A stretch of 64,000 nt of DNA, taken from positions 105,338,001 to 105,402,000 of the forward strand of contig OX597819.1 of assembly GCA_951406725.2 (NCBI GenBank), read 5' to 3'. The translations under genes and the position numbers were made by a program. Positions 1-59,624 of the stretch are shown one piece after another; the stretch's first letter is position 1, and each line of letters starts with the position of its first letter. Source of the DNA: Octopus vulgaris (lineage: Eukaryota). The notes beneath the pieces were generated by a model that saw only the letters and a program-made list of their open reading frames with translations, searched no databases and was not told the DNA's origin.

Positions 1-1653
1 ATATTTTTATATTTCAATTGTCATCATCATCATTGTCAGCACCTTAATTATTGTTGCTAGTGGTGATGGTGGTGGCAATAGAACTTTTAACCCTAAATAA
101 GATAATTTTCCTGCTATCTTCGTCTTGATCACCTTTAGTATTGTTGTTGTTGTTAGTGGTCATGGTCGTAGCAGTGGAAGTAATACCTCTAAGTATTATT
201 ATTATTGCTTATTTAGCTTGGGTTCGAATTTATCAATAAAATTCTTTTCTCTGATTTTCCTCTCGATTTCACTTGGGCTGTGTAATTTGTAGAATGGAAA
301 TATTATATATATTTTCCGACCACATGTTGCTAGGTGGTTACTCAAAGGTATCTGACGGACCTCTGGGTCTCTAATCTGTTGCCGGTGTACACGTGAGCGT
401 TCTAATAGTGCGTTTCCCGTCTGACCTACATATATTTCTTCACAATTTGGGCATTTGATGCAGTAAATTAAATTTCTGCTTTTGCAGTTCATATTCGCGT
501 TTGTGAATATTTTCCCGGTTTTTGTGTTTATATATTGACCGGTATGTATGAATTGGCATGTGCCACATCGGCTATCATTGCATTTAGATACCGTGAATGT
601 TTGGTCTTTGTTGCTGAGGTCAAATTTTGCCTTTGTTAGTAATGTTTTCAAGTTTTTAGGCTGTCTTTTACTAAGCACCATAGCTCGATCCTTGATTATG
701 TCTTTTAATTCATTACTTTGGGCAATGATTGGTAGGTTTGCTTTGGCAATGTTGAAGATATTCTGGTGACATGGGTTGTGTGTCACTATGAATGGTATGA
801 CTTGTTCTTGTTTTCCTCTTCCTTGGGTTGTCCTAAGTTGTTGTATAGGTATTTTTATAGCCCGCTGTATGCCATTTTCTATAAGTAGAGATGGGTATTT
901 TTGTTTGAGCAAAAATTCTCTTAGTTCTATTAGGCGTTTGTTCCTGATATTTGCATCTTCTACAATAGTACAAATTCTTCTGGCTAGGCAGTATGGGATG
1001 TTACGTTTTGTATGTGGTGGATGGCACGACTTAAAATTTAGGTATTGATGTGTGTGTGTGTGTTTATAGTATATATCTGTGGTGATGGTGGTGTCTTTTT
1101 TAATTACCATTATATCCAGGAATGGTAATTTGGTACTACTCATCTCCTTTGTAAATTTGAGAGATGGGTGTAGGTTGTTCAGGAGGATATTGAACTCTTC
1201 CAGAGTATTTAGAGATTCTGTCCAGATTATGAAACAGTCGTCTAGGTATCTCTTCCATGCCTTTTCAATATACTTTCTAAGTCCAGTGCCATAGTTTACC
1301 TCCACCTCTTGGTAGAGTTGTTCTTCTAAGTATCCCATTACAGAGTTGGCGTAAACGGGAGCAAACCTCGTTCCCATCGCCGTGCCTCTAATTTGGATGT
1401 AATTCTTTCCATTGAAGAAGAATGTGTTATTTTCTAGAATAAGTTTGACTGTGTCTAATATAAATGGCACTGTGAATCTGCTGGGAATCACTTCTCTATG
1501 TTTTTCTAACCAGTATTTAATCGCCTTTATTCCTAAATCGTGTGGAATATTGGTGTAGAGGCTTACCACATCAAAACTTAGTAAAACTGAATTTGTTTCT
1601 GTTGTTTTGGGAAGATGGGACAGGAAGTCGATGTCATCCCTGATGAAACTTGG
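1..1653 (-). mobile_element. Inverted partial copy of the Penelope-like element (RT core, GIY-YIG, part of 3' UTR); runs off the window's left edge
   Basis: Reverse complement of 3374-5026 (paired positions sum to 5027). ORF 202..1710(-) matches the C-terminal ~480 aa of ORF 2915..4825 except GTGLRK vs GTGFRK and HTHTH vs HTDTH. Confidence 0.95.
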
Positions 1654-2591
1654 CATATAAATGCGAAAAATATGCTGAAATACATTCGAAATGGATATCT
1701 TTAGCGGCACCCATACTTCCTCGGAAGTACCTAATTAAAGAAATTGCAGGAGAACCAGAGGAAGAAACTAAACTTCGATGGGACCTTAGTTTGATAAAAT
1801 TCAGGACCGACATCTCCATTACCCTGTCTAAACAATCCCGCTACAAAGCCAAATACGAAGCTATCGATGATCAAATCAGAGATGAAATATCCAAACTAAC
1901 GACCGGCAATATAGCAGAAAAAATGCGAGAACTATGGATCAGAGATATCTCAAAAGAAGAAAGCAGATCAAGAAAGTTTTGGCAGCGGAAACAATTATTT
2001 CTCGACAAATATGCTACAAATTACGGTAAAGACACCAGAACTCCGAGAAATAGCATTAAAAGTGGACAACCTCACCAACGCAACATACACCAGAACACGT
2101 GGCAACATGAACACCCGTTTCACCACGAATCGAAGACGAACTACGGTAAGAACTCTTCCCATTTTGTATGCAAACACCCTAATGCACACAACATGAACAA
2201 AAAGCACAAACAAAATAGATATTGTTTTGAACAGACCATTAGCAGTAGAAATAACAGGAGATCATTTTCAAGACCTCAACAGAGATTACCCACAAGAAAC
2301 TGGACAAAAAACCGATCTAGATCTAGAAGTAAACCCAGATCATTTCTCCAGGTGGTTAAAAACAATGCTAACAAGAAATTGAAAAGTAGCATACATAATA
2401 CCAAAAACAAGACAGAAAACATAACGAAACCAAGTAAAGTACCACAACCAAAACGCAAAATTCATCAAGCAAACATCAACAGGAATATAAATCATAACCA
2501 GAAAAAAATCCATTTTTTTACGTCAGGACAACAAACACCGGAGAAAGAAAAAATCCAAGAGGAAACATACCCCAAACAACTGAACGTATAG
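1650..2591 (+). CDS. PLE upstream reading frame (N-terminal region, 5'-truncated at the inversion junction); helical acidic/basic block then K/R/N-rich low-complexity region
   Basis: 313-codon open frame starting at the inversion junction, same A-rich composition as the RT frame, overlapping it at 2498-2591. Confidence 0.7.
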   Translation: MAYKCEKYAEIHSKWISLAAPILPRKYLIKEIAGEPEEETKLRWDLSLIKFRTDISITLSKQSRYKAKYEAIDDQIRDEISKLTTGNIAEKMRELWIRDISKEESRSRKFWQRKQLFLDKYATNYGKDTRTPRNSIKSGQPHQRNIHQNTWQHEHPFHHESKTNYGKNSSHFVCKHPNAHNMNKKHKQNRYCFEQTISSRNNRRSFSRPQQRLPTRNWTKNRSRSRSKPRSFLQVVKNNANKKLKSSIHNTKNKTENITKPSKVPQPKRKIHQANINRNINHNQKKIHFFTSGQQTPEKEKIQEETYPKQLNV

Positions 2592-4825
2592 ATCCTAAAA
2601 TAATTAATTTATCAAAAAGAGATCTTGACAATGATGAAATCCAACTTCTGTCAAAAGGACTGAAATTCACACCTACACCAACAGCCAACCACCAAGAATT
2701 AAAGGAGGATATCCAAAAATTCTGTCGAAAATTACGACTTGTAGAATTCTTCGCTAACAAAAGTAATGAGATTGATGAATCCCTAGTAAGGAATAAATCA
2801 AATTTCACCCCACCAAAAGGAAGAAATAACTACCTTGACCAATACATTGATATCCTGTCTAAATTTCCCCTTAGACGCAATACCAATGTTAGGCCAAACA
2901 TTAGCAAATCAGAGATGTCTGCATGTAAACGTATACAAAACGATCAAACAATAATAATTAAACAAGCAGATAAAGGTGGTGCAATTGTTATTATGGATAC
3001 CGAATACTATAAGGATTTGGTTGAAGACCAACTGAAGGATACAACCTTCTATTGTGAAATACCCGCAAATATAGACCACCACATCATGAAAAAGATCAAC
3101 AACCTGATTTCAACACACCACAACTCACTTACGGATAATGAAAAAGACTACATCACCAATTTTGAACCAAAACCCAGCAACTTCTACGGCTTACCAAAAA
3201 TACACAAATCAAAAAACATTCAACAGGCAGTAAAAGAACAAGAAAGTGAGTACATAAAATTATTACATCCAAAAGACCTAAAACTTAGACCTATTATAGC
3301 TGGTCCAGCATGCCCTACACACCGTCTAAGCAATTTTATTGACATTGTTTTGAAACCACTATGTACTTACATACCAAGTTTCATCAGGGATGACATCGAC
3401 TTCCTGTCCCATCTTCCCAAAACAACAGAAACAAATTCAGTTTTACTAAGTTTTGATGTGGTAAGCCTCTACACCAATATTCCACACGATTTAGGAATAA
3501 AGGCGATTAAATACTGGTTAGAAAAACATAGAGAAGTGATTCCCAGCAGATTCACAGTGCCATTTATATTAGACACAGTCAAACTTATTCTAGAAAATAA
3601 CACATTCTTCTTCAATGGAAAGAATTACATCCAAATTAGAGGCACGGCGATGGGAACGAGGTTTGCTCCCGTTTACGCCAACTCTGTAATGGGATACTTA
3701 GAAGAACAACTCTACCAAGAGGTGGAGGTAAACTATGGCACTGGATTTAGAAAGTATATTGAAAAGGCATGGAAGAGATACCTAGACGACTGTTTCATAA
3801 TCTGGACAGAATCTCTAAATACTCTGGAAGAGTTCAATATCCTCCTGAACAACCTACACCCATCTCTCAAATTTACAAAGGAGATGAGTAGTACCAAATT
3901 ACCATTCCTGGATATAATGGTAATTAAAAAAGACACCACCATCACCACAGATATATACTATAAACACACAGACACACATCAATACCTAAATTTTAAGTCG
4001 TGCCATCCACCACATACAAAACGTAACATCCCATACTGCCTAGCCAGAAGAATTTGTACTATTGTAGAAGATGCAAATATCAGGAACAAACGCCTAATAG
4101 AACTAAGAGAATTTTTGCTCAAACAAAAATACCCATCTCTACTTATAGAAAATGGCATACAGCGGGCTATAAAAATACCTATACAACAACTTAGGACAAC
4201 CCAAGGAAGAGGAAAACAAGAACAAGTCATACCATTCATAGTGACACACAACCCATGTCACCAGAATATCTTCAACATTGCCAAAGCAAACCTACCAATC
4301 ATTGCCCAAAGTAATGAATTAAAAGACATAATCAAGGATCGAGCTATGGTGCTTAGTAAAAGACAGCCTAAAAACTTGAAAACATTACTAACAAAGGCAA
4401 AATTTGACCTCAGCAACAAAGACCAAACATTCACGGTATCTAAATGCAATGATAGCCGATGTGGCACATGCCAATTCATACATACCGGTCAATATATAAA
4501 CACAAAAACCGGGAAAATATTCACAAACGCGAATATGAACTGCAAAAGCAGAAATTTAATTTACTGCATCAAATGCCCAAATTGTGAAGAAATATATGTA
4601 GGTCAGACGGGAAACGCACTATTAGAACGCTCACGTGTACACCGGCAACAGATTAGAGACCCAGAGGTCCGTCAGATACCTTTGAGTAACCACCTAGCAA
4701 CATGTGGTCGGAAAATATATATAATATTTCCATTCTACAAATTACACAGCCCAAGTGAAATCGAGAGGAAAATCAGAGAAAAGAATTTTATTGATAAATT
4801 CGAACCCAAGCTAAATAAGCAATAA
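2498..4825 (+). CDS. PLE reverse transcriptase + GIY-YIG endonuclease; frame open from 2498, first ATG at 2915
   Basis: Manual translation upstream of 2915 has no stop back to TAA 2495-2497 and encodes conserved IINLS and LSKGLKFTPTP; RT and EN motifs intact. Confidence 0.93.
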   Translation, partial: PEKNPFFYVRTTNTGERKNPRGNIPQTTERIDPKIINLSKRDLDNDEIQLLSKGLKFTPTPTANHQELKEDIQKFCRKLRLVEFFANKSNEIDESLVRNKSNFTPPKGRNNYLDQYIDILSKFPLRRNTNVRPNISKSEMSACKRIQNDQTIIIKQADKGGAIVIMDTEYYKDLVEDQLKDTTFYCEIPANIDHHIMKKINNLISTHHNSLTDNEKDYITNFEPKPSNFYGLPKIHKSKNIQQAVKEQESEYIKLLHPKDLKLRPIIAGPACPTHRLSNFIDIVLKPLCTYIPSFIRDDIDFLSHLPKTTETNSVLLSFDVVSLYTNIPHDLGIKAIKYWLEKHREVIPSRFTVPFILDTVKLILENNTFFFNGKNYIQIRGTAMGTRFAPVYANSVMGYLEEQLYQEVEVNYGTGFRKYIEKAWKRYLDDCFIIWTESLNTLEEFNILLNNLHPSLKFTKEMSSTKLPFLDIMVIKKDTTITTDIYYKHTDTHQYLNFKSCHPPHTKRNIPYCLARRICTIVEDANIRNKRLIELREFLLKQKYPSLLIENGIQRAIKIPIQQLRTTQGRGKQEQVIPFIVTHNPCHQNIFNIAKANLPIIAQSNELKDIIKDRAMVLSKRQPKNLKTLLTKAKFDLSNKDQTFTVSKCNDSRCGTCQFIHTGQYINTKTGKIFTNANMNCKSRNLIYCIKCPNCEEIYVGQTGNALLERSRVHRQQIRDPEVRQIPLSNHLATCGRKIYIIFPFYKLHSPSEIERKIREKNFIDKFEPKLNKQ

Positions 4826-5142
4826 TAATAATACTTAGAGGTATTACTTCCACTGCTACGACCATGACCACTAACAACAACAACAATACTAAAGGTGATC
4901 AAGACGAAGATAGCAGGAAAATTATCTTATTTAGGGTTAAAAGTTCTATTGCCACCACCATCACCACTAGCAACAATAATTAAGGTGCTGACAATGATGA
5001 TGATGACAATTGAAATATAAAAATATAAAAATCTCTGACAAAGGATATTTACAACATTTCTAAAAATAACCCAACAATTGCTGCTTCGGCCAGGGTCAAG
5101 ATACAGGACTCTTGACCTGTCCAACAAAGCGTGATGCCTAAA

Positions 5143-5284
5143 CCAATCAGCTCAACCAACCAATCAGCTTAAGTAATTGAGTGATACTACACACTGATTG
5201 GTCAGAATACAGTTTGCAAAACCTAGCACTCTGGAGCCTACCCAGCTGTATTTATAGCACAGAATCACTCATCTTGCTACAGTC
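5143..5284 (+). promoter_or_regulatory. Putative Pol II promoter in the PLE terminal repeat
   Basis: CCAATCAG at 5143 and 5160, reverse CTGATTGG ending 5201, TATTTATA 5249-5256, Inr-like ACAGTC about 30 nt downstream. Confidence 0.55.
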
Positions 5285-5319
5285 AAAAATTGTGAAGCAT
5301 GACTGTCAACACTACTACA

Positions 5320-5364
5320 TGAACCCGAAGATTGCAGAATTCAATGCATGAAAGTACTAGTTCA
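5320..5364 (+). ncRNA. Minimal type I hammerhead ribozyme motif (CCGAAGA core) in the PLE terminal repeat
   Basis: UGAAC-CCGAAGA-U UGCA gaauucaa UGCA U-GAAA-GUAC-UA-GUUCA: 5-bp stem I, 4-bp stem II closed by U.U, palindromic AGUACU stem III. Confidence 0.75.
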
Positions 5365-5493
5365 ATCAGAATGAATATTTAACATTCTACTATTTCATTT
5401 TATTTTATTCAATTATAATATATTATCTTATAATATATCATTATAAGATTGTAAATAAAACGTGAAAATCAGACAAGGTTGGAATTCTTTTTA

Positions 5494-5558
<65 letters not shown>

Positions 5559-9901: not shown

Positions 9902-10117
9902 TGACGGATGTGATGTCGTTTCAGCTCCGAAGGTAATCATTTATTTTGACTATTTAAAAGTGTATATTGACAAACATTTTGTGCTTAAAAGTTGTGCAAC
10001 AACATCCACTGTAAACCTTTGATAAATATCGACACAAAATTTTGCCTTTGTGGGCAAAATTTAAAAGAAAAAATTCTCATAGCCTTCGTGGTTTCATTTA
10101 GCCATTTTATTTCCAAA

Positions 10118-12282
10118 ATGGCCACTGGCCACCACGAGGCTGAGGTGCAAGTCAAGCGTGACGCACAAACAGAAAAACAGGATGCTCTGTTAGCATACGC
10201 CGAACCTGATAACTCCACCACCATCAACAGCAACAAATACAAAACAAAGGTCGCAAGGCCAAGCACCGTCAACACCATCAGTGAGTCCACCACCACCACC
10301 AACACCATGGCAGAATCTGCTACTAAAACTGCTATCCCTACTAAAGATATCGCCACCAATAACAACACCAACATCACCATCACCGCCACCAAAGACCGTG
10401 CCGTCAATGCTACTAATACTACCAACACCACCGCCGTCACCAAGAACGACAATAACAACAACAACAACAACAACAACAACGACGACAACAACAATTCCCT
10501 TCAACCACTGCTCACTCCATCACCAACAAGTGAAAAAATAACGACGACAAGCAAACGAAATGTCGAAATTTGCCCTAGTGCAGGACTAAAGTACGCAGGC
10601 AATTTTCCACCCCTTCCTACTTGCACGATCGAACCAAACACACCAATTTTACAAACTGCAGCCAACAACAACATCACCACAAGCAACAACAATAACAAAA
10701 CAACAACAAATTTCGCTGAGGCGATTAAAGAAAAAACAACAACAATATACTTTACGGCTCAACAAATACAGGACACGAACATCAAAATAACAGAATCAGA
10801 AGGTATAGTAAAAATAAACATACCAGAAGACATTTTGGAAAATGAAAAAAGACGAACAATCATTTATAAAATAGTTAACAAAAAAACAAAAATCCCAGAG
10901 AAGGCCAACACAAGCAAAATAGAGAAGTGCTTGAAACCCATCTGGGATCACAAAGAATATGTAACCTGGTGGAACAAATTTGCCCACATACAAGTTGTTT
11001 TCTACACCGAAGAGTTAGCTAGACATTTCTCAACGCTAACTCTTCACTCAGATGAACTCCAACTTACACCAAGCTATCGGGGACAGAAAGTGACTAAGAT
11101 CACTCTAAACAATGTCCCCAAAATAGCCAATAGTCTATGGCTTGTAAAGGCCTTATGCGTAAAAATGGCGAATTATACTATTTTGGAAACCACAGTCACA
11201 GAGCATAAAAACTGGGTGGGAAAAAAAATAGAATTTCTTCTACACATACATCATGAAGATATAAAAAAAATACCCACCCAGATATGTGTATCAGACGACC
11301 ACAAGTTATATGTGGTCGTCGATGGCAGAAGACCACGTTGCTACATATGCGGCAGTGAGCAACACCTAAAAAAAGACTGCAAATCTGCCGCAAGAAAACA
11401 ACAGCAACAACAACAGCAGCCGGAAACAAAAACAAATAAACAAGGTTTACTACCCACACCACTTTTTGCAGGAACAAACCTCACCAAACAAACAACCACA
11501 CCAACTGCAGCACCAAGAACAGAAGCAGCATCACCAACAACAACAACCAAGAATATACCAACTCCCAAACCAAGGACATCTGCCAAAAAGACACCCAGCA
11601 AAAATGAAGAAACAATTACAACTCCAAATCCCCACAAAATTGAGACCCTAAACAACACAACAATACCCACAATCACTCAAACACATAATACCCAAACCCC
11701 ACATCCCAAACCGCATACACCACAACCAAACGCTCACCAACCAACACCAACAACAAAACCAACACAGTCGACAATAGACCCCAATACTTTCCCTCTTCCA
11801 GACTCCGATTCGTCTGATCTGTCATTAGACGAAGAAGACACGGAAGATTGGCAAATAGCCACAGGGGGGAGAAGAAAAAGGGAAAAAAAAGAAAAGAAAA
11901 AATAACAAACAAAGCGGGAAGATACACCACTCCCGAAACAAAAACATCCACAGAAAACACACACATCAACACAAACACACCATCATCAAACCCCCCAAAA
12001 ATGTTGACAGCCATTAACACAAACAACTACGACCTAATGGAACACATTAGGTCAAACACTAACATTACTGAAAACGACATAAAAACAAGTAACCACCCAC
12101 ACACAACACCACCACAACACATTAAAATAATACACGTGACACAGAACACATACAGCACCCTGAAATCTCTTTACCCTGATGCAGTAGGGAGATTTCAAAA
12201 GTACTCATCGAAAAAACTGTATAAAAGCCTCATAGAAGAAGACCGTGAGGTGAAAGACAAAGAACTTTCGAAAAACAAGTAA
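10118..12282 (+). CDS. Tx1 ORF1 (gag-like nucleic acid-binding protein with CCHC knuckle); probable frameshift in A/G runs near 11865-11900
   Basis: aaaATGG start at 10118; CYICGSEQHLKKDC knuckle; T/N/P-rich tracts; ORF 11848..12282 continues in the same style to just before ORF2. Confidence 0.8.
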
Positions 12283-12324
12283 CCTTTTCTCTCTCCTTTT
12301 CCCTTTTTGCACTTTTATCGGAAC

Positions 12325-15300
12325 ATGCTCAGAATAGGTAGTATAAATGTACGTGGCTTGGGGGTCGCCTTGGAAACAAGGCTACCTGTTAAATGACATC
12401 AAGTCACTAAATCTGAATATCATAGCCATCAGTGAGACCAGACTCCACAGCTTGCGGGCACTCCAGCACATTTTCGGTACACATTTCAACATTTATTTTT
12501 CTCCGTGTCTACCGAGAATGGGCGGAGGTGGCACCGCGGTGCTTATCCGGAAGAGTCTGGATCTCAAAGTAAGAGCAAATTTCCTAGACCCGGAGGATAG
12601 GCTGGTCGTTTTAGATGTCGATGGCAGCAATGAGTGTGCTTTTCGACTGATAGCAGTTTATGCTCCGTCCTTAACAGGCCGACCAGATTTCTTTCGACGT
12701 CTAGAGTCTTTCATGGGAACGTCTCGTCCTTTACTTTTAGTGGGGGATTGGAATGCCACCCTGGACACGCATCTAGACTACGTGGGCAGAGATAGCAATA
12801 GAAGGGGATGCAAATGCCTCAAAGACCTGCTCAGACGTTTCCAACTGTCTGACAGGTACCGACTGGACCACCCGAATGTGCCAATGTGGACATGGAGTAA
12901 CCGCATCGGGTCGTCCAGATCATACTTAGATAGAGTATTCTGTGGGACAATAGATAAAAATAGTGTAGGTTGTCCACAATTTCATATAGTCAGTTACACA
13001 GATCACAAGTTTGTGACTTGTACACTTGACTTAGATAAGACACATAGGCAGGGTCCTGGTTACTGGAAACTGAACGCGTCTTTTACAGCACGACAGGTTT
13101 ACAGGGACCGGATCAGCACATTAGTTAAGAGAGCTTTGACGGGTACCATCATCAACAACAGATGGTGGTATGCCCTAAAAAAAGCGATTAAAGCAGAATC
13201 AGTCAGATACAGTAGAGCCCTAGCATTAGACCGAAATAGAATAGAGGGAGATTTAGTTAAGGTTTTAGAAGAGGCACTTAGAACTGGCATCGCGTCCAAC
13301 GTACTGGCGGCGAGATTGGCCCTCGACCAACACCTCAACGCCAAACACGAGGGATGCGTTGTCAGAGCTAGGATGCGTGCTCTGAGGAACGAAGGAGTTG
13401 GAGCCGCCCAAGAGGCCCGAGTGGTGGAGACGCAACGAGGCAACAGAGCCACCATCAAGTCTCTTATAGATGAACAGGGGCGCGAATTGCTCGAGCCTAA
13501 AAGGATGTGTGGGGTTTTTCAACAACACTTCACCCAACTGTTTGGGACAAGTGGTGAGTCAGAAAGCAGAGTGGACTTTAGTGCCTACCTGCATGCCTTG
13601 CCACGACTCTCAGCAAGGGAGGTGGAGTCTTGTGAAAAGCCTATCACAGCTGCGGACGTACAGGATGCGATGGTAGGCTGCGCGAGAGACAAGTCACCAG
13701 GCTTGGATGGTCTGCCCTACGAATTTTATTTTCATATGCCAGACTTGTTTGGAGGCGTCTTGGCAGCTGTCTACTGCAACTGGCAGCAGAACGGGAGTAT
13801 TCCTGCTTTTGTAAAGCGAGGAGCAGTGGCACTGATCAAGAAAGACCCAAACAAGGGGGACGTCATAGATAATTTCAGGCCCATCACTCTGCTCAACGCA
13901 GATTTGAAAATTTTGGCCAAGGTGTTAGCCGAGAGGTTGGCGCTTGTCATCAAGAAACTAATCGACAAGGCGCAAACATGCGCCGTGCCGGGTAGAAGTA
14001 TTCATGACAACCTCCATCTGATGCGCTACATCATAGACAGGGTAGTTAAAAATCCTGGCATGGGTGGGGCGCTGATCAATTTGGATCAATCAAAAGCCTT
14101 CGATAGGGTAGACCATCACTACTTGGAGGCTGTCCTCAAAGCGGCTGGTTTCGGTCCAGTTTTCCGCGGTTGGATCGCTGCCTTATACAGCGGCATCCGC
14201 TCAGTAGTTCGCGTAAATGGTCATCTATCCAGACCTTTTAACATCATGCGTTCGGTTCGTCAGGGATGCCCCCTCTCATCGCTGCTGTATGTACTGACCC
14301 TTGAGCCACAACTGCGGAAACTGGCGACGCTGAGGGGCATCCCACGAGAGCTGGGATGCGGGAGGAGCGTGTCTGCATACGCGGATGACGTCACCGTCAT
14401 AGTGTCGAGCTACGAGCACATCGAGCTGGTAGGCGAGACACTGAAAGAATATGAAGCGGTAACGGGAGCAAAAATTAACCGGGAAAAGTCAGTGGGCTTG
14501 CGGCTCGGCACCTGGAGAAGCAAGCCCATGCCGTCCAACAGCGTCTCCATCGTGGGACGCTGGACGGACGGACCGGTTAAATTGCTCGGGGTCTGGTTCG
14601 GTCCGGACCTCCAAATGGAGAAGAACTGGGGCGAGATAACGACTAGGGTGGCTACTCTCACCCAGAAATGGACTGAGAGAAAGCTATCCCTAAAAGGTCG
14701 GGCGGAGGTGGCGAACGCGTACATCGCATCCGTCATCAAGTATCGTCTGACCGTCGTGCCTTGTCCCGACCCTACCATCACCAAACTGGAACGCATACTC
14801 TTCCGCTTCTTGTGGAAGGGAAACGTTCCGATGGTTAGGCGATCCATTTGCTGCCAACACCCGCTAAATGGAGGGCTGGGCATGCCGTGGTTGATGATGC
14901 GCAGACATGCGCTGAGACTGCGACATCTCCGGCGCTTCATAGACAACGGTGAACAGGGGTGGTCGCCTTTTGTGCGGCGCGCTTTCCCGCAGCTCGTCTC
15001 CTTGGACGAACTACAGTCATGGATCAAGCAGAGACCGAGGCTAGGCGAATGGCACCGCGAGTGTCGCGTTGCTCTCAAGCAACTCTGCCGTCCGGGATCG
15101 AACTTGTGCGACTCCATCACAACAAAGGCATTCTATAGAGGATTAGTGGAGGGGAGGTGCGACGACGAACTCGGGCAGAGTCTGGGCGTCGACGAGGAAC
15201 ACCTGACCCGCCTGTTCAGGACAACTTTCGGGCCGGGACCTATGAACAATCACTAAAGATCCCTGGCCTGGCAGTGCTATCGAGAAGCATTACCTGTTCG

Positions 15301-15763
15301 GGATAAGCTCTACAGACACGGTTCCAGACACACTGGACCGACTTGCCCGAGATGCGGTCAGAGCGACGAAACCGTTCTGCACGCACTCGTGCAATGTCCA
15401 ACCATTTCCGACCTGTGGGATTATGCCGAACGGCTGCTGTCACGTGTGGGACGAATCCGCCTATCGGCCGAGTCTATCGTGAGAATTGCTCCGCCCCCTT
15501 CCCTCAACCGGGAAGGCAAGGCAGTTTTCATCGTACTGGTGGCCATGGTGAAAGAATGTGTGTGGTGGACTCGAGCGAAAGGATTAGAGACAAACACTTA
15601 CCTCTCTGGCCAATCGCTCATCAACTTTTTCAAGTACCACTTGAAAAGGAAGGTGAGAATGGAGAGGGAAGTTTTGTCTCGCGAAAGATTCAAAAAAAGA
15701 TGGGTGAATGTTGCAAAGATGGTGCGTGCTAGTAACGAAACCATTTTGAGCATGATCCTGTAG
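12325..15763 (+). pseudogene. Tx1 ORF2: AP endonuclease, RT, C-terminal Zn finger; one +1 frameshift (G run 12360-12364) and one in-frame TAA (15254-15256)
   Basis: MLRIGSINVRGLG then SPWKQ; ISETR, VYAP, GDWNA, YLDRVF, TDH, WKLN, KSPGLDG, NFRPITL, DQSKAFDRV, VRQGCPLS, YADD, GGLG; same frame past the stop gives CPRCGQSDETVLHALVQC. Confidence 0.92.
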
Positions 15764-21658: not shown

Positions 21659-22175
21659 ATTTTATTTAGTTTGAATATTTAATCGACTGACAGAATTCCT
21701 AGAACATCTGACAAAATATGTTTTGGTGTTTATTCCGGATTTTTACGTTCTGAGTTCAAATCCTGCTGAAATCAACTTAGCCTTTCACTCTTTAGGAGTC
21801 ATTAAAATAAAATACCACCAGAATACTGATGCATGTATGTATGTATGTATGTATATATGTATGTATGTATGTATATATATATATATACATACATACATAC
21901 ATATATACATACATACATACATGCATCAGTATTCTGGTGGTATATGTATATATATATATATACATACATACATACATATATACATACATACATACATACA
22001 TGCATCAGTATTCTGGTGGTATTTTATTTTAATGACTCCTAAAGAGTGAAAGGCTAAGTTGATTTCAGCAGGATTTGAACTCAGAACGTAAAAATCCGGA
22101 ATAAACACCAAAACATATTTTGTCAGATGTTCTAGGAATTCTGTCAGTCGATTAAATATTCAAACTAAATAAAAT
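21659..22175. repeat. Inverted duplication (fold-back) of a family-B SINE fragment around a microsatellite core
   Basis: Arms ~21659-21880 and ~21950-22175 are reverse complements (sum 43834); mirror ORFs 21723(+) and 22111(-) have identical N-termini. Confidence 0.93.
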
Positions 22176-28687: not shown

Positions 28688-31600
28688 CTAGGACAACAAC
28701 AAGAACAAAATACAACCACGTTTCCCCTCCTACAATCAAACTACGTAGACAGAACCAGGAAAAAACACCAAATAACGCCAACTTGAAATATGTATCCTCT
28801 GACCAAGTGGCAAACCAAACAAGTAACTCTTTTTTACTGACATACCTGGAAAATATGAAGGCCGACCTAAGCCAGGAGATCCAGCGAGCCATCACCAACC
28901 ATCTATGCAAATCACAAGGACCACTCACCCATTACCAACTTCCCTTACCTCGACATTCCTGTTAAATGTACGTGGCATCAACCCATCAATTATTGCCCAA
29001 AAATGGAAGATCCCATATATAGAGAGTTGGCTTGCCGAAATGGCACATTGCTTCCCTTTCTTTATCCTTACCGAGACTCACCTGAACAACACCCATATGG
29101 ACGCAGAGGTGAAAATAAAAGATTTCACCATTGTTCGTGCAGATCGCACAGACCGAAATAAGGGAGGGACAGCCATCTTTATCCATGACTCCTTTTCACT
29201 TGATGCCAAGGACACATTTTCCAATGGCTACTGTGAATCGGTATCAGTATACAACAAAGCCAAGGACATAACCATTGTTGGTATTTACAGGCCTCCCCAG
29301 GCACCTCTAAAGTACTTTGAAGAGTGCCTTAGCAAAGTCAAGTCCTTCCTTCGGAAGTACCACTCCGGAAACATAATAGTGATGGGTGATTTTAACCTCC
29401 CTCATGTGAACTGGCCCACAAATACTCCGAAGTTAGGCAAGTGCTCTACATCAGATAGGGCAGCAGCAGAACTGCTCTTTAATCTGATGGATGAGTATTT
29501 CCTGACTCAGCTAGTGCTTGAACCAACGAGACAGAATAAAACGATCTTGGATCTGGTACTGACCAATCACTCTAGCTACGTTCACAGCATTTCAGTCGAA
29601 AAAACTCTCCTCTCAGACCACGACATGGTACTCTGCAATCTTAATTCCCGACGTATAAAAACCAAACCAGCCAATCCCACTCCATGGCACCCATTTGACA
29701 ACATAAATTTCCACAAAGCGGACTGGGGAACAATCAGAAAGGATCTGTCTTCCATCGACTGGTCTTTTACTCTCAATTCCCCTCATATTGAGACCGCGTG
29801 GCAGCACTTTGAAACCATTGTCACTGACACATGCTCTAAACACGCTCCCAAGAAATCTACTAACACAAACAGAAACCGGCTCCCTAAAAAGAAAAAAACA
29901 CTCATCAGGCGCATCAAAAGACTCAACAAAAAAATCAACCAATTAAAATATTCCCACACGCAACATCCACATTCAACAACAATGAAAAGACTAGAGCTGG
30001 AAAAACTTCATCTGCAGACTAACATGAAAACCTCCATTGAAAATCAAAGAGCTGTGGAGGAACAATGGGTAATCAAAAACATCAAACAGAACCCAAAAGT
30101 GTTCTATTCTTATGCAAATAAGCATAGAACCACTGTCTCACCTATTGGGCCATTGATTGATGAAAACGGCATTCCCCAACACGATGCTAAAGAAATGGCA
30201 GAAATACTGCAGAAACAATATTGCTCTGTCTTCAGTGTTCCCACTGATATTGATGTGAGGGAAACGAACGAAGCTGACTCCCAACACAAAATCGCAGACA
30301 TAACCTTCACTGCCACCGACATCGTGGCAGCAATAAATGAGGTCAAACATTACTCCGCTGTAGGCCCTGATAGATTTCCCGCCAGTCTCCTGAAGGAATG
30401 TAGATATCAACTTGCAGTCCCTCTGACCAACCTCTGGAGAAACTCATTAGACGCAGGTTATATACCGAATAAGTTTCTATCCCAGTCGGTCATCCCGGTT
30501 TTCAAACAGGGAAACAGATCCCTCGCAGTCAACTATCGCCCAATCTCACTCACCTCCCACATCATTAAAGTGTTTGAAAGAGTGTTAAGATCAAGGATAG
30601 CTGACTTCCTGGAGACCCACAAACTCCTAAATTCAAATCAACATGGCTTTCGCTGTGGCAGGGACTGTCTAACACAGCTCTTACACCACATTGAAGATGT
30701 ACTCAAAGCCTTGGGAACAGGTTCGAACTCTGACGTCATATACCTTGACTTCAGTAAAGCGTTCGACAGGGTAGACCATAACATCCTACTCTCAAAATTG
30801 GCAAATGTTGGAATCCGTGGAAAAGTTCTACACTGGATTCAGTATTTCCTAGCGAATAGAACACAACATGTTGTAGTTGATGGAGTCCACTCAAACCCAG
30901 CAAAAGTCACCAGCGGTGTTCCCCAGGGAACTGTTTTGGGTCCGCTACTCTTCATAATTTATGTAAACGACCTTTCCAGTGTCGTACATCACTGCAAAGT
31001 GAAAATATTCGCTGATGACACTAAGCTCCAGCAAATCGTCAATGAAGAAGCAGACCGAACTCAACTCCAGTCTGACCTATATGCTGTGAGTCAATGGGCA
31101 GACAGAAACAAAATGCAACTGAATGAGGGAAAATTTGAGCTGATGCATTTTGGAAGAAATTCCTCACTAAAACAACCATACTCTCTTCCTTCAGGGGAAC
31201 CGCTCACAGCCTCTAACAATATCAGAGACCTGGGTGTAATTGTTGATGACGATCTCAGTTGGAGTGCACACATCAACAAGAAGGTCGATACAGCTCGTAG
31301 GATGAGTTCCTGGATCTTAAGAACTTTCCGGTCCAGAGAACAAGGTGTCATCATACCACTTTTTCATCCTTTGTACGGCCACACCTTGAATACTGCTGCC
31401 CACTGTGGTCTCCTCACACAAGACAAAACATCTCCAGAATTGAGTCACCCCAGAGGGCTCTCACTAAACAAATTGAAGGCATGGCTGCTCTCGACTATTG
31501 GGATCGCCTTAAAGCCTTGAAACTTTACTCCCTCCAGCGTCGCCGTGAGTGGTACATCATTTGTACGATGTGGAAAATATACCGCCAACTTTGCCCAAAC

Positions 31601-31975
31601 GACCTAAACATTAGCTTCAAGGTTCATCCGAGACTTGGACCACGGGCTATACGTCCCCTGCCAAATTCAAGATCACAACATACATGTACACTGCAACATA
31701 ATTTCTTTTCCTCAACAGGCCCTGCCCTATTTAACATTGTCCCGAGGGAGATCAAAGAGGAAAAGGATCCCATCAACTTCAAACAGAGTCTGGATGGATT
31801 CCTTCAAAGAATACCAGACAAGCCACCCATAATTGGATACAACTCACCCAACAAGAACTCACTACTTGAACAAAACTTGACTTAAACAGGATTCGAATAA
31901 TCCTATCAGGTGGTGCTATTAAGTTAGACATGGCCTGGACCAATCTCTGGTCGAAACATATCTAAGTTTTATCTA

Positions 31976-45478: not shown

Positions 45479-45594
45479 TTAGAGACAAAACCACTATTAG
45501 GCAAATCAAACAATGAAAGACTTAAGCCAATACATATGATTAATTTATATTATTTAAATATGTAACAAAATTATTAAAAAATATAATTAATATC

Positions 45595-45657
45595 CCACTA
45601 CGATCGTTTCCTGCCTGCTGTCTTCAAATTTTTGAGTCGCAGTCATTCATCAGGTGG
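45595..45657 (-). ncRNA. Canonical-core type I hammerhead ribozyme in a ~210-bp unit ending at (TA)n
   Basis: Minus strand CCAC-CUGAUGA-a UGaCUGC..loop..GCAGgCA g-GAAA-CGAUCG-UA-GUGG; palindromic CGAUCG. Confidence 0.85.
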
Positions 45658-45713
45658 TTTAAATATTTTTCTTGGCGAGGTTTAAACAATATATATATAT
45701 ATATTCTTTTCTT

Positions 45714-57976: not shown

Positions 57977-58023
<47 letters not shown>

Positions 58024-58027
<4 letters not shown>

Positions 58028-58359
58028 CATATAAAAGAAGTAAAAGAAAATGGAAATTAGGAAATTAATAATTGGTTATTATTAACAGCAAATTAATTAT
58101 CACCACTTACAGCTGTTTCAATTAATACTCAGTAAATATTAAATCCATATGACCTAAGCATAATATCTTCAGAGGGGAAAAAATATACTCTTGGATGTAT
58201 ATTTTTTCCCCACTGAAGATATGCTTAGGTCATATAAATTTAATATTTACTGAGTATTAATTGAAACACCTGTAAGTGGTGATAATTAATTTGCTGTTAA
58301 TAATAAACAATTATTAACTTCCCAATATCCATTTCCTTTTCTGCTTTTATATGAATATA
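58024..58359. repeat. Head-to-head palindrome of a hammerhead-bearing ~165-bp unit between two (TA)n tracts
   Basis: Arms 58024-58188 and 58197-58359, 8-nt loop tcttggat; HHR motifs at 58103-58177(-) and 58208-58279(+): CUGAAGA..GAAA-CAGCUG/CACCUG-UA-AGUGG. Confidence 0.88.
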
Positions 58360-58370
58360 AGCTATTTGTT

Positions 58371-58427
<57 letters not shown>

Positions 58428-58643
58428 CTATTATTTTAAAGAAATGAATTCCCCCCAAATACTTGGTATTGAATCAATATTTCCTTGGATGAGACCATCC
58501 ATTCATGAGTTAACACAACCTCTAATCGTATATATATATATATTAGATATTAGATAATAAAACGAATAGTTTATACCTGGTAGCTTACCGGTAAAGCACA
58601 GTCACTTTCATAGTGTTCGTTATGTATAGGGAGACGGAAGATG

Positions 58644-59021
58644 GAAGATACAAGAATTTCCATTAATCACTACAACTGTGTCGACACATCTGGCATCGAT
58701 CCCTCACGGGTGGGGTACATAACAACTGGTTCAGAAGCATTCGACGGTGCCGATGTATCTTTTCGGGTGATAAATATTTTATTTTATTATTCATCTATCA
58801 AATGAAGCGCTATGTCCTTTAATTTACAGCTTTTCTTTGCACGAAATGGGAAGATATATTACGGAACTGCTATTTTAACGAGTTGTATATATTTATTACC
58901 CGAAGAAACACATCTACACCGTCGGATGCTTCTGAATCAGTTGTTAAGTATCCCACTCGTGAGGGATCGCTGCTTGATATGTCGAAACAATTGTAATGAT
59001 TAATAAAAATTCTCGTATCGT
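58644..59021. repeat. Older inverted pair of a second hammerhead-bearing unit with ~110-bp spacer
   Basis: 58644-58777 pairs with 58889-59021; two-arm consensus AUCAC-CCGAAGA-GACACAUC..GAUGUGUC-GAAA-CAAUUG-UA-GUGAU (58666-58771 minus; 58895-59000 plus). Confidence 0.8.
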
Positions 59022-59624
59022 CCCCCCTCTCTCTCTATATATATATACGCACACATCATCTTAACGTTGCTAAGTGTTTCAAAGACATGCGACTTAACTC
59101 GAAAAGTGAGTTACACGAAAAATCATTAAAAGAATTTGTTAGCTGATACCTGCTTTAATAAATGATTTGTACATATTTTCACATGTATTTTATTTGAGTT
59201 TCCATTCCAGTGTTGGTTTTAGGTGCTTCTTTAAAATTTTTTATGCCGTTTTAGATATTTTCACTGAGACCGACATAAATCGGCTGAAGTTGAGGTTTAT
59301 TTTTCCATTAAATTCTTTAAAAACAACGTAGAGTCGGAAAAGACGTAAATGGAAGCGACGTCAGTTCAGGTATATGTGTGTATGTGTGTGTGTGTGTGTG
59401 TAAAAGCGTTTGTCACTTTCTTTTATGGGTAGCCATGACTGAACTTTCCTTGTTTACTTGATCTTTCTTTCTTTCTTTCGTTCTTTCTTTCTTTCTTTCT
59501 TTCTTTCTTTACCTGGAGCAGCATTTGGTTCCCTCTTTGACCATATGTTTCCAGAAGAGAAAATAGGAAAAAGCACACATATAAAACACATAGACTCGCA
59601 TACACAAACACAGACACACACACA

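Follow-up and report, generated by a model that had tools for sequence, protein, structure and literature searches.

The palindrome at about 58023-58528 of the window, the whole 64-kb stretch of Octopus vulgaris DNA analysed here, consists of two 5'-truncated 3'-end pieces of a dispersed, hammerhead-bearing non-coding repeat, joined head to head within a TA repeat, likely in a single insertion carried out in trans by the enzymes of Penelope-like elements (PLEs). We hold the PLE origin of the element with high confidence, and lean slightly towards a route through two nicks rather than through fold-back. The first-pass annotation had regarded the palindrome as the product of a two-ended Penelope-type integration of which only terminal sequence remains, and the truncated arms, the rule followed by their 3' ends and the TA flanks support this reading.

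Anatomy of the palindrome

Global alignment of the inverted arms, which were indeed found where they had first been described (58024-58359), yielded 150 identities, 12 mismatches and 4 internal gap bases over 162 aligned bases, so that the arms are 93 % alike, and fold prediction assigned their RNA hairpin -191.5 kcal/mol (z -30.4), a stability equalled by 0 of 100 shuffles. As a ruler we used a family profile of 893 positions built from 102 copies, on which the hammerhead occupies 582-667, a short 3' end lies near 739 and a long 3' end near 873. On this scale the asymmetric insert of ~500 bp has the following parts:

57979-58022, no strand: target microsatellite (TA)22 at the short end (sequence)
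58023-58198, minus strand: left arm, 5'-truncated, family positions 561-739, extending to the short 3' end (alignment, profile)
58103-58177, minus strand: near-intact type I hammerhead motif of the left arm, predicted from motif and helix pattern
58189-58198, no strand: inversion junction, 8 nt present in the left arm only plus the 2-nt overlap GT; unique in the genome
58197-58350, plus strand: body of the right arm, family positions 571-739 (alignment, profile)
58208-58279, plus strand: damaged hammerhead motif of the right arm (motif and helix pattern)
58351-58528, plus strand: tail, family positions 740-873, on the right arm only, including (TA)26 at 58373-58424
58529-58542, no strand: target microsatellite (TA)7 at the long end (sequence)

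The left arm starts at family position 561 and the right arm at 571, with a shared GT at 58197-58198; the eight nucleotides at 58189-58196, formerly taken for a loop separating the arms, therefore belong to the left arm, which simply extends that much deeper into the 5' part of the family. The junction string itself starts at 58179. The family tail of ~135 nt is carried by one arm only, and the (TA)26 within it is an expanded TA tract, after which family sequence resumes at 58425 and stops at 58528, to be followed by (TA)7. Hence the earlier description of one hammerhead per arm, each directed outward to its own (TA)n, holds for the cores, one on each strand and both pointing outward, but not for the right-hand repeat, which is internal to an element that runs to 58528. 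The outer 8 nt of the left arm (58023-58030) are ambiguous between element and TA target, and a target-site duplication is unreadable here because both ends of the insert are bordered by TA repeats. Relative to the profile, the arms of this locus have 5 substitutions and an 11-nt gap in common.

At 85 bp from the end of the insert, an older head-to-head pair of another family occupies 58613-59054; its arms are 72 % alike over 457 columns, and a degenerate hammerhead-like GAAA-CAATTG-TA box lies near 58990.

A transcript reading through the palindrome is predicted to fold into a 160-bp hairpin, which would bury either ribozyme, as could be expected of a domesticated regulatory hairpin acting as a dsRNA/ADAR substrate or a ribozyme blocker. 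We find such a function scarcely credible, since the arms have diverged at mismatches left unrepaired and the ribozyme of the right arm has been damaged, which is the expectation under neutral decay, and since insertion alone explains the layout. The copy has decayed after its insertion, as reflected by the divergence of its arms and the damage to its right ribozyme, and is most likely inert.

Hammerhead motifs

Both arms carry the type I core (CUGANGA, GAAA and UH, with three helices), near intact on the left and damaged on the right. On the minus strand, the left arm has CTGAAGA at 58172-58166 and GAAA-CAGCTG-TA at 58119-58108, separated by a helix II region of 46 nt; it retains the palindromic CAGCTG of helix III, 4 of 5 helix I pairs would form, and the cut is predicted between 58108 and 58107. 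On the plus strand, the right arm has CTGAAGA at 58213-58219 and GAAA-CACCTG-TA at 58263-58274, where the palindrome of helix III is broken, the first pair of helix I is gone and 3 nt of helix II are deleted. Rfam at gathering threshold returned 0 matches in the 64-kb window, so the hammerhead call rests on the pattern of motif and helices.

Across the family, both core boxes are present in 59 of 89 arms, a count in which the 3' box is partly fixed by the search pattern. The named helices are 83.5 % paired, compared to 30-48 % when slid, and no measure of helix covariation rose above shuffles (49-308 of 500 shuffles). In most rows (34 of 46) helix II is unpaired at its base. Of 178 genomic 3' ends, 3 map to the predicted cut, where they form no peak. 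The subfamilies (L040, L042, L048, L066, L082 and others) keep the core and the CAGCTG loop and vary in the length and sequence of the helix II region. Further hammerhead-like motifs, belonging to other repeat families, occur in the window at 45590-45665 (minus strand) and 45214 (plus strand).

The layout resembles the minimal PLE hammerheads of Cervera and de la Pena 2014 (PMC4209133), which in the sections consulted have palindromic helices III and occur as opposite-strand pairs 100-700 bp apart. Shared with them are the type I core, a helix I of 5 bp, a helix III of 1-2 bp with a palindromic loop, an enlarged helix II and the pairing on opposite strands; the helix II region of the octopus family, however, spans 43-46 nt, compared to helices of 7-8 bp in those sections.

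A dispersed family of truncated copies

Within the genome (2.8 Gb in 227 contigs), a DNA search gave 86 matches from 40 scored candidates, many of them palindromic, and a 21-mer of the left arm had 245 exact matches (control 0). From these 245 we examined 69 loci, comprising 29 returned by the search and 40 from the first 100 listed; three loci already covered by the DNA search and most on C6-C7 were omitted, and one locus, L100, was picked for its two close matches. The 3' ends of the copies concentrate at family positions 720-779 (90 of 178) and 860-879 (52 of 178), and the 5' ends are spread. Walking upstream revealed ~0.9 kb of profile, preceded, by eye, by several hundred further bases that resemble microsatellite; no ORF appeared along this walk. 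The copies are remnants, truncated at the 5' side, of a non-coding repeat that is rich in microsatellites and at least ~0.9 kb long. Runs of TA, TG or CA follow most family ends, as judged by eye. Past the long end, no continuing element was seen in 30 loci, where the only common sequence was an unrelated repeat after the TA.

At L184/L193, L190, L191 and L046 the family forms far larger palindromes, whose arms measure 400-850 bp. A look-up for RNA data sets containing the locus listed none. Among RNA contigs from 4 of 24 listed runs, 3 runs gave other family copies and none bridged the junction, an outcome that we weighed neither way. Literature on octopus, Penelope and hammerheads and on PLE twin priming returned neither the family nor its end rule; Repbase, Dfam or supplements may hold the family.

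Since no reverse transcriptase or endonuclease ORF could be tied to the family, we base its connection to PLEs on the footprint and the motif. With the PLE protein of the window as tblastn query, matches fell at 6 family loci, at no consistent position. At L100 (C6:73935100-73945000), a family arm adjoins a GIY-YIG remnant in a chimeric-looking arrangement, and the 3' end of this remnant is untraceable. The same locus holds two family arms, 97 % alike and 2.3 kb apart, head to head around an inverted pair of fragments from another PLE family, one that bears GIY-YIG and has a long 3' region rich in AT, which may represent a nested insertion or a template switch. As a parent the remnant is improbable: the arm was not seen downstream in 29 other copies and in 20 ten-kb stretches, bar one weak 56-nt match. 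The loci L101-L150 belong to an old family resembling PLEs, which has a GIY-YIG remnant at the C terminus, a frame rich in asparagine upstream and an AT-rich 3' region of >2.5 kb; no upstream match to the reverse transcriptase of the window PLE was seen.

Inversions arose independently

A head-to-head partner was detected at 29 of the 69 loci, whereas the control flanks gave 1 in 66 (other cut-offs gave 30/69 or 28/69, and a few more partners are visible by eye), which leaves 40 loci with no detected partner. For the breakpoints we compared 44 pairs, 28 selected by pattern and 16 by the palindrome. Breakpoints near 561/571 occur at 58023-58528 and at 0 of the 43 others, and a search with its junction found one genome match at <=2 mismatches, this very locus. 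Six pairwise near-coincidences, involving 8 of the 44 loci, all involve a hot spot at 523-529: L008, L014 and L082 at 529/586-589, L003, L024 and L059 near 524/617, and L074 with L099. The junction letters of these pairs differ, L008 and L014 bear their tails on opposite arms, and L082 belongs to another subfamily. The two arms of a locus agree in subfamily in 30 of 31 pairs (24.6 on average after shuffling), and their mean likeness is 84.7 % within a locus compared to 81.7 % between loci. We read the inversions of this family as having formed independently.

This bears on the earlier suggestion that the palindrome propagates as its own MITE-like, two-armed retro-unit. MITEs are short non-coding derivatives of DNA transposons with inverted repeats and many related copies. 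The family resembles them in being short and non-coding, with an inverted repeat and many related copies; it differs by having no common termini or junction, and by its asymmetric ends, many solo copies and 5' truncation. Nor did the ends look like those of a TIR/TSD transposon devoid of the hammerhead core, the finding named beforehand as refuting the first-pass reading: the two ends differ from each other, and the hammerhead core is retained. The commonness of palindromic copies (the 86 matches from 40 scored candidates) and the near-equal breakpoints listed above would suit a mobile palindrome. Yet the junction is unique, the near-equal cases share a hot spot while differing in junction letters, in the arm that bears the tail (L008/L014) or in subfamily (L082), other palindromes differ in their breakpoints, and at 40/69 sampled loci, over half, no partner was detected. 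We therefore regard a mobile palindrome as very improbable, and for 58023-58528 the MITE-like reading is largely refuted. A palindromic ribozyme cassette propagating as a unit would have been a new element type; the data speak against it.

One short and one long end

Among 40 classifiable pairs (4 unclassifiable ones were dropped), 35 combine one short with one long end: 21 of 25 in the pattern-selected set (p 0.0005 against 50 %) and 14 of 15 in the palindrome-selected set. The five rule-breakers are three long-long and two short-short pairs. When loci were picked by their long end instead (30 of 34 mapped, two of them overlapping the first set), an inverted partner adjoined at 13, by reading of the matches; 5 of these partners reach the short end, 8 stop earlier and 0 carry a tail. 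At L265, a 29-nt inverted piece of tail lies 440 nt away.

A hot spot for 5' ends

The 5' ends of 20 of the 69 loci lie at 515-535, and 28 starts in the end tally fall at 523-527. The hot spot contains TCATTC and TCAGTC, with a TATA-like run 32 nt upstream, and is also an imperfect palindrome. We take TCATTC and TCAGTC to resemble the invertebrate initiator consensus. PLE repeats have been reported to hold promoter motifs (PMC3846280, PMC2377424, in the sections consulted). Because the same spot is an imperfect palindrome, a stop of the reverse transcriptase or a fold-back there is an equal reading.

A tentative extension, which we consider possible though less than even in probability, is that a short SINE-like hammerhead RNA (~210 or 350 nt) starts from the initiator-like motif at 521-530, with the TATA-like box 32 nt upstream, and is pasted by PLE dimers through coupled priming, in which the short start site always serves one target strand and the long start site the opposite strand.

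Ends at the hot spot could alternatively be those of a non-LTR retrozyme, in which a small tandem or circular hammerhead RNA would be the mobile form, with a short unit beginning there. Retrozymes, defined by tandem units, have been argued to be PLE derivatives (10.64898/2026.07.22.740005), and, as far as that source was consulted, the octopus family shares with animal non-LTR retrozymes (see also PMC7229834) a non-coding, dispersed nature, a type I hammerhead and a probable derivation from PLEs. The palindromic helix III and the clustering of 20/69 5' ends would also agree. The mapped loci, however, contain no head-to-tail array of complete units (L190 has a partial internal repeat only), nothing common follows the long end in the 30 loci save the unrelated repeat after TA, copies reach far 5' of the hot spot, and the predicted cut accounts for only 3 of 178 3' ends. 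We judge a retrozyme unlikely.

Origin of the inverted pair

The head-to-head layout is already known for PLEs, and the family of 58023-58528 fits it. PMC8557442 describes inverted, 5'-truncated PLE copies, which often bear a tail of 30-40 bp at one of their ends, as well as TA targets and PLEs that are non-autonomous; the published footprint of an inverted 5'-truncated copy with a one-end tail is given also in PMC3846280, each in the sections consulted. Going by these sections, endonuclease-bearing (EN+) PLEs (Penelope/Poseidon, Neptune, Hydra and Naiad) likewise show an inverted truncated copy with the tail confined to one end, TA targets and junctions of microhomology scale; the octopus family differs in having no linked ORF, a tail of ~135 nt instead of 30-40 and a long microsatellite-rich upstream region.

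On the two-nick route, a PLE protein uniting GIY-YIG endonuclease and reverse transcriptase, probably as a dimer, would nick the TA target on both strands. Both nicks would then prime cDNA synthesis on family RNA, the short start site being used at one nick and the long start site at the other, and both cDNAs would stop early, at 561 and 571, before joining through the 2-nt overlap. Several of these steps have counterparts in the consulted parts of PMC11167929, where both strands are cleaved and extended, two start sites of reverse transcription bound the tail, a dimer is predicted and targets are AT-rich; ribozyme cleavage is unneeded in vitro. For the PAc protein, in vitro, the same source reports start sites that do not differ between the strands, a result that does not by itself predict the rule of one short and one long end.

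The second arm might instead have been made by fold-back within the same PLE family. In this model, put forward by Arkhipova and colleagues (PMC3846280, as consulted), a short palindrome or a microhomology would let the first cDNA (or an antisense template) prime its own synthesis and so be copied back. Three loci (L061, L098 and L099) turn inside the imperfect palindrome CAG-T-CTG at family positions 526-532, junction gaps amount to -2 to +2 nt in 14 of 44 pairs, and the subfamily concordance of 30/31 is as self-priming would have it. Most junctions, 58023-58528 included, are nonetheless asymmetric: one arm extends to a more 5' family position than its partner, and a hairpin loop is lacking; either arm may be the longer (19 versus 17), and in 7 of 44 junctions >30 nt separate the mapped arm starts. 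Fold-back is accordingly a serious candidate with a chance of roughly one in three, and the two-nick route remains our preferred one.

Relation to the large PLE of the window

The palindrome had been proposed to mirror, in miniature, the large PLE at 1-5496. This is right for topology, as both are head to head with a hammerhead near each outer end and TA flanks, but not for sequence, there being no blastn similarity between them. The hammerhead of the large PLE, at 5320-5365, has a CCGAAGA core and a GTAC loop. The two arms of the large PLE, unlike those of the small element, stop at one and the same base ahead of TA, and it is young (arms about 100 % alike) and coding, with reverse transcriptase and GIY-YIG and a frame of 775 aa. 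For want of any blastn match, descent of the small element from it was rejected. The inverted arm of the large PLE (L246) continues ~470 bp to the left of the window and shows, by eye, one difference from the right arm.

Elsewhere in the window, a perfect inverted repeat of 233 bp with a small internal duplication lies in microsatellite DNA at 21659-22175 and is either a very recent fold-back or an assembly artefact. Long ORFs at 9989-15763 and 28827-31885 appear to belong to two further non-LTR retrotransposons, one resembling an ORF1/ORF2 element and one an endonuclease-reverse transcriptase element.

Significance

Taken singly, the locus is ordinary retroelement debris; its value is statistical and derives from the many independent inversions of its family. 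The end rule, which is nearly strict, and the 5' hot spot bear on how PLEs form inverted, tailed insertions. Should the short hammerhead RNA and its coupled priming by PLE dimers prove true, hundreds of stubs would constitute a genomic record of how Penelope elements make inversions and tails, and would include an unusual hammerhead with a long helix II.
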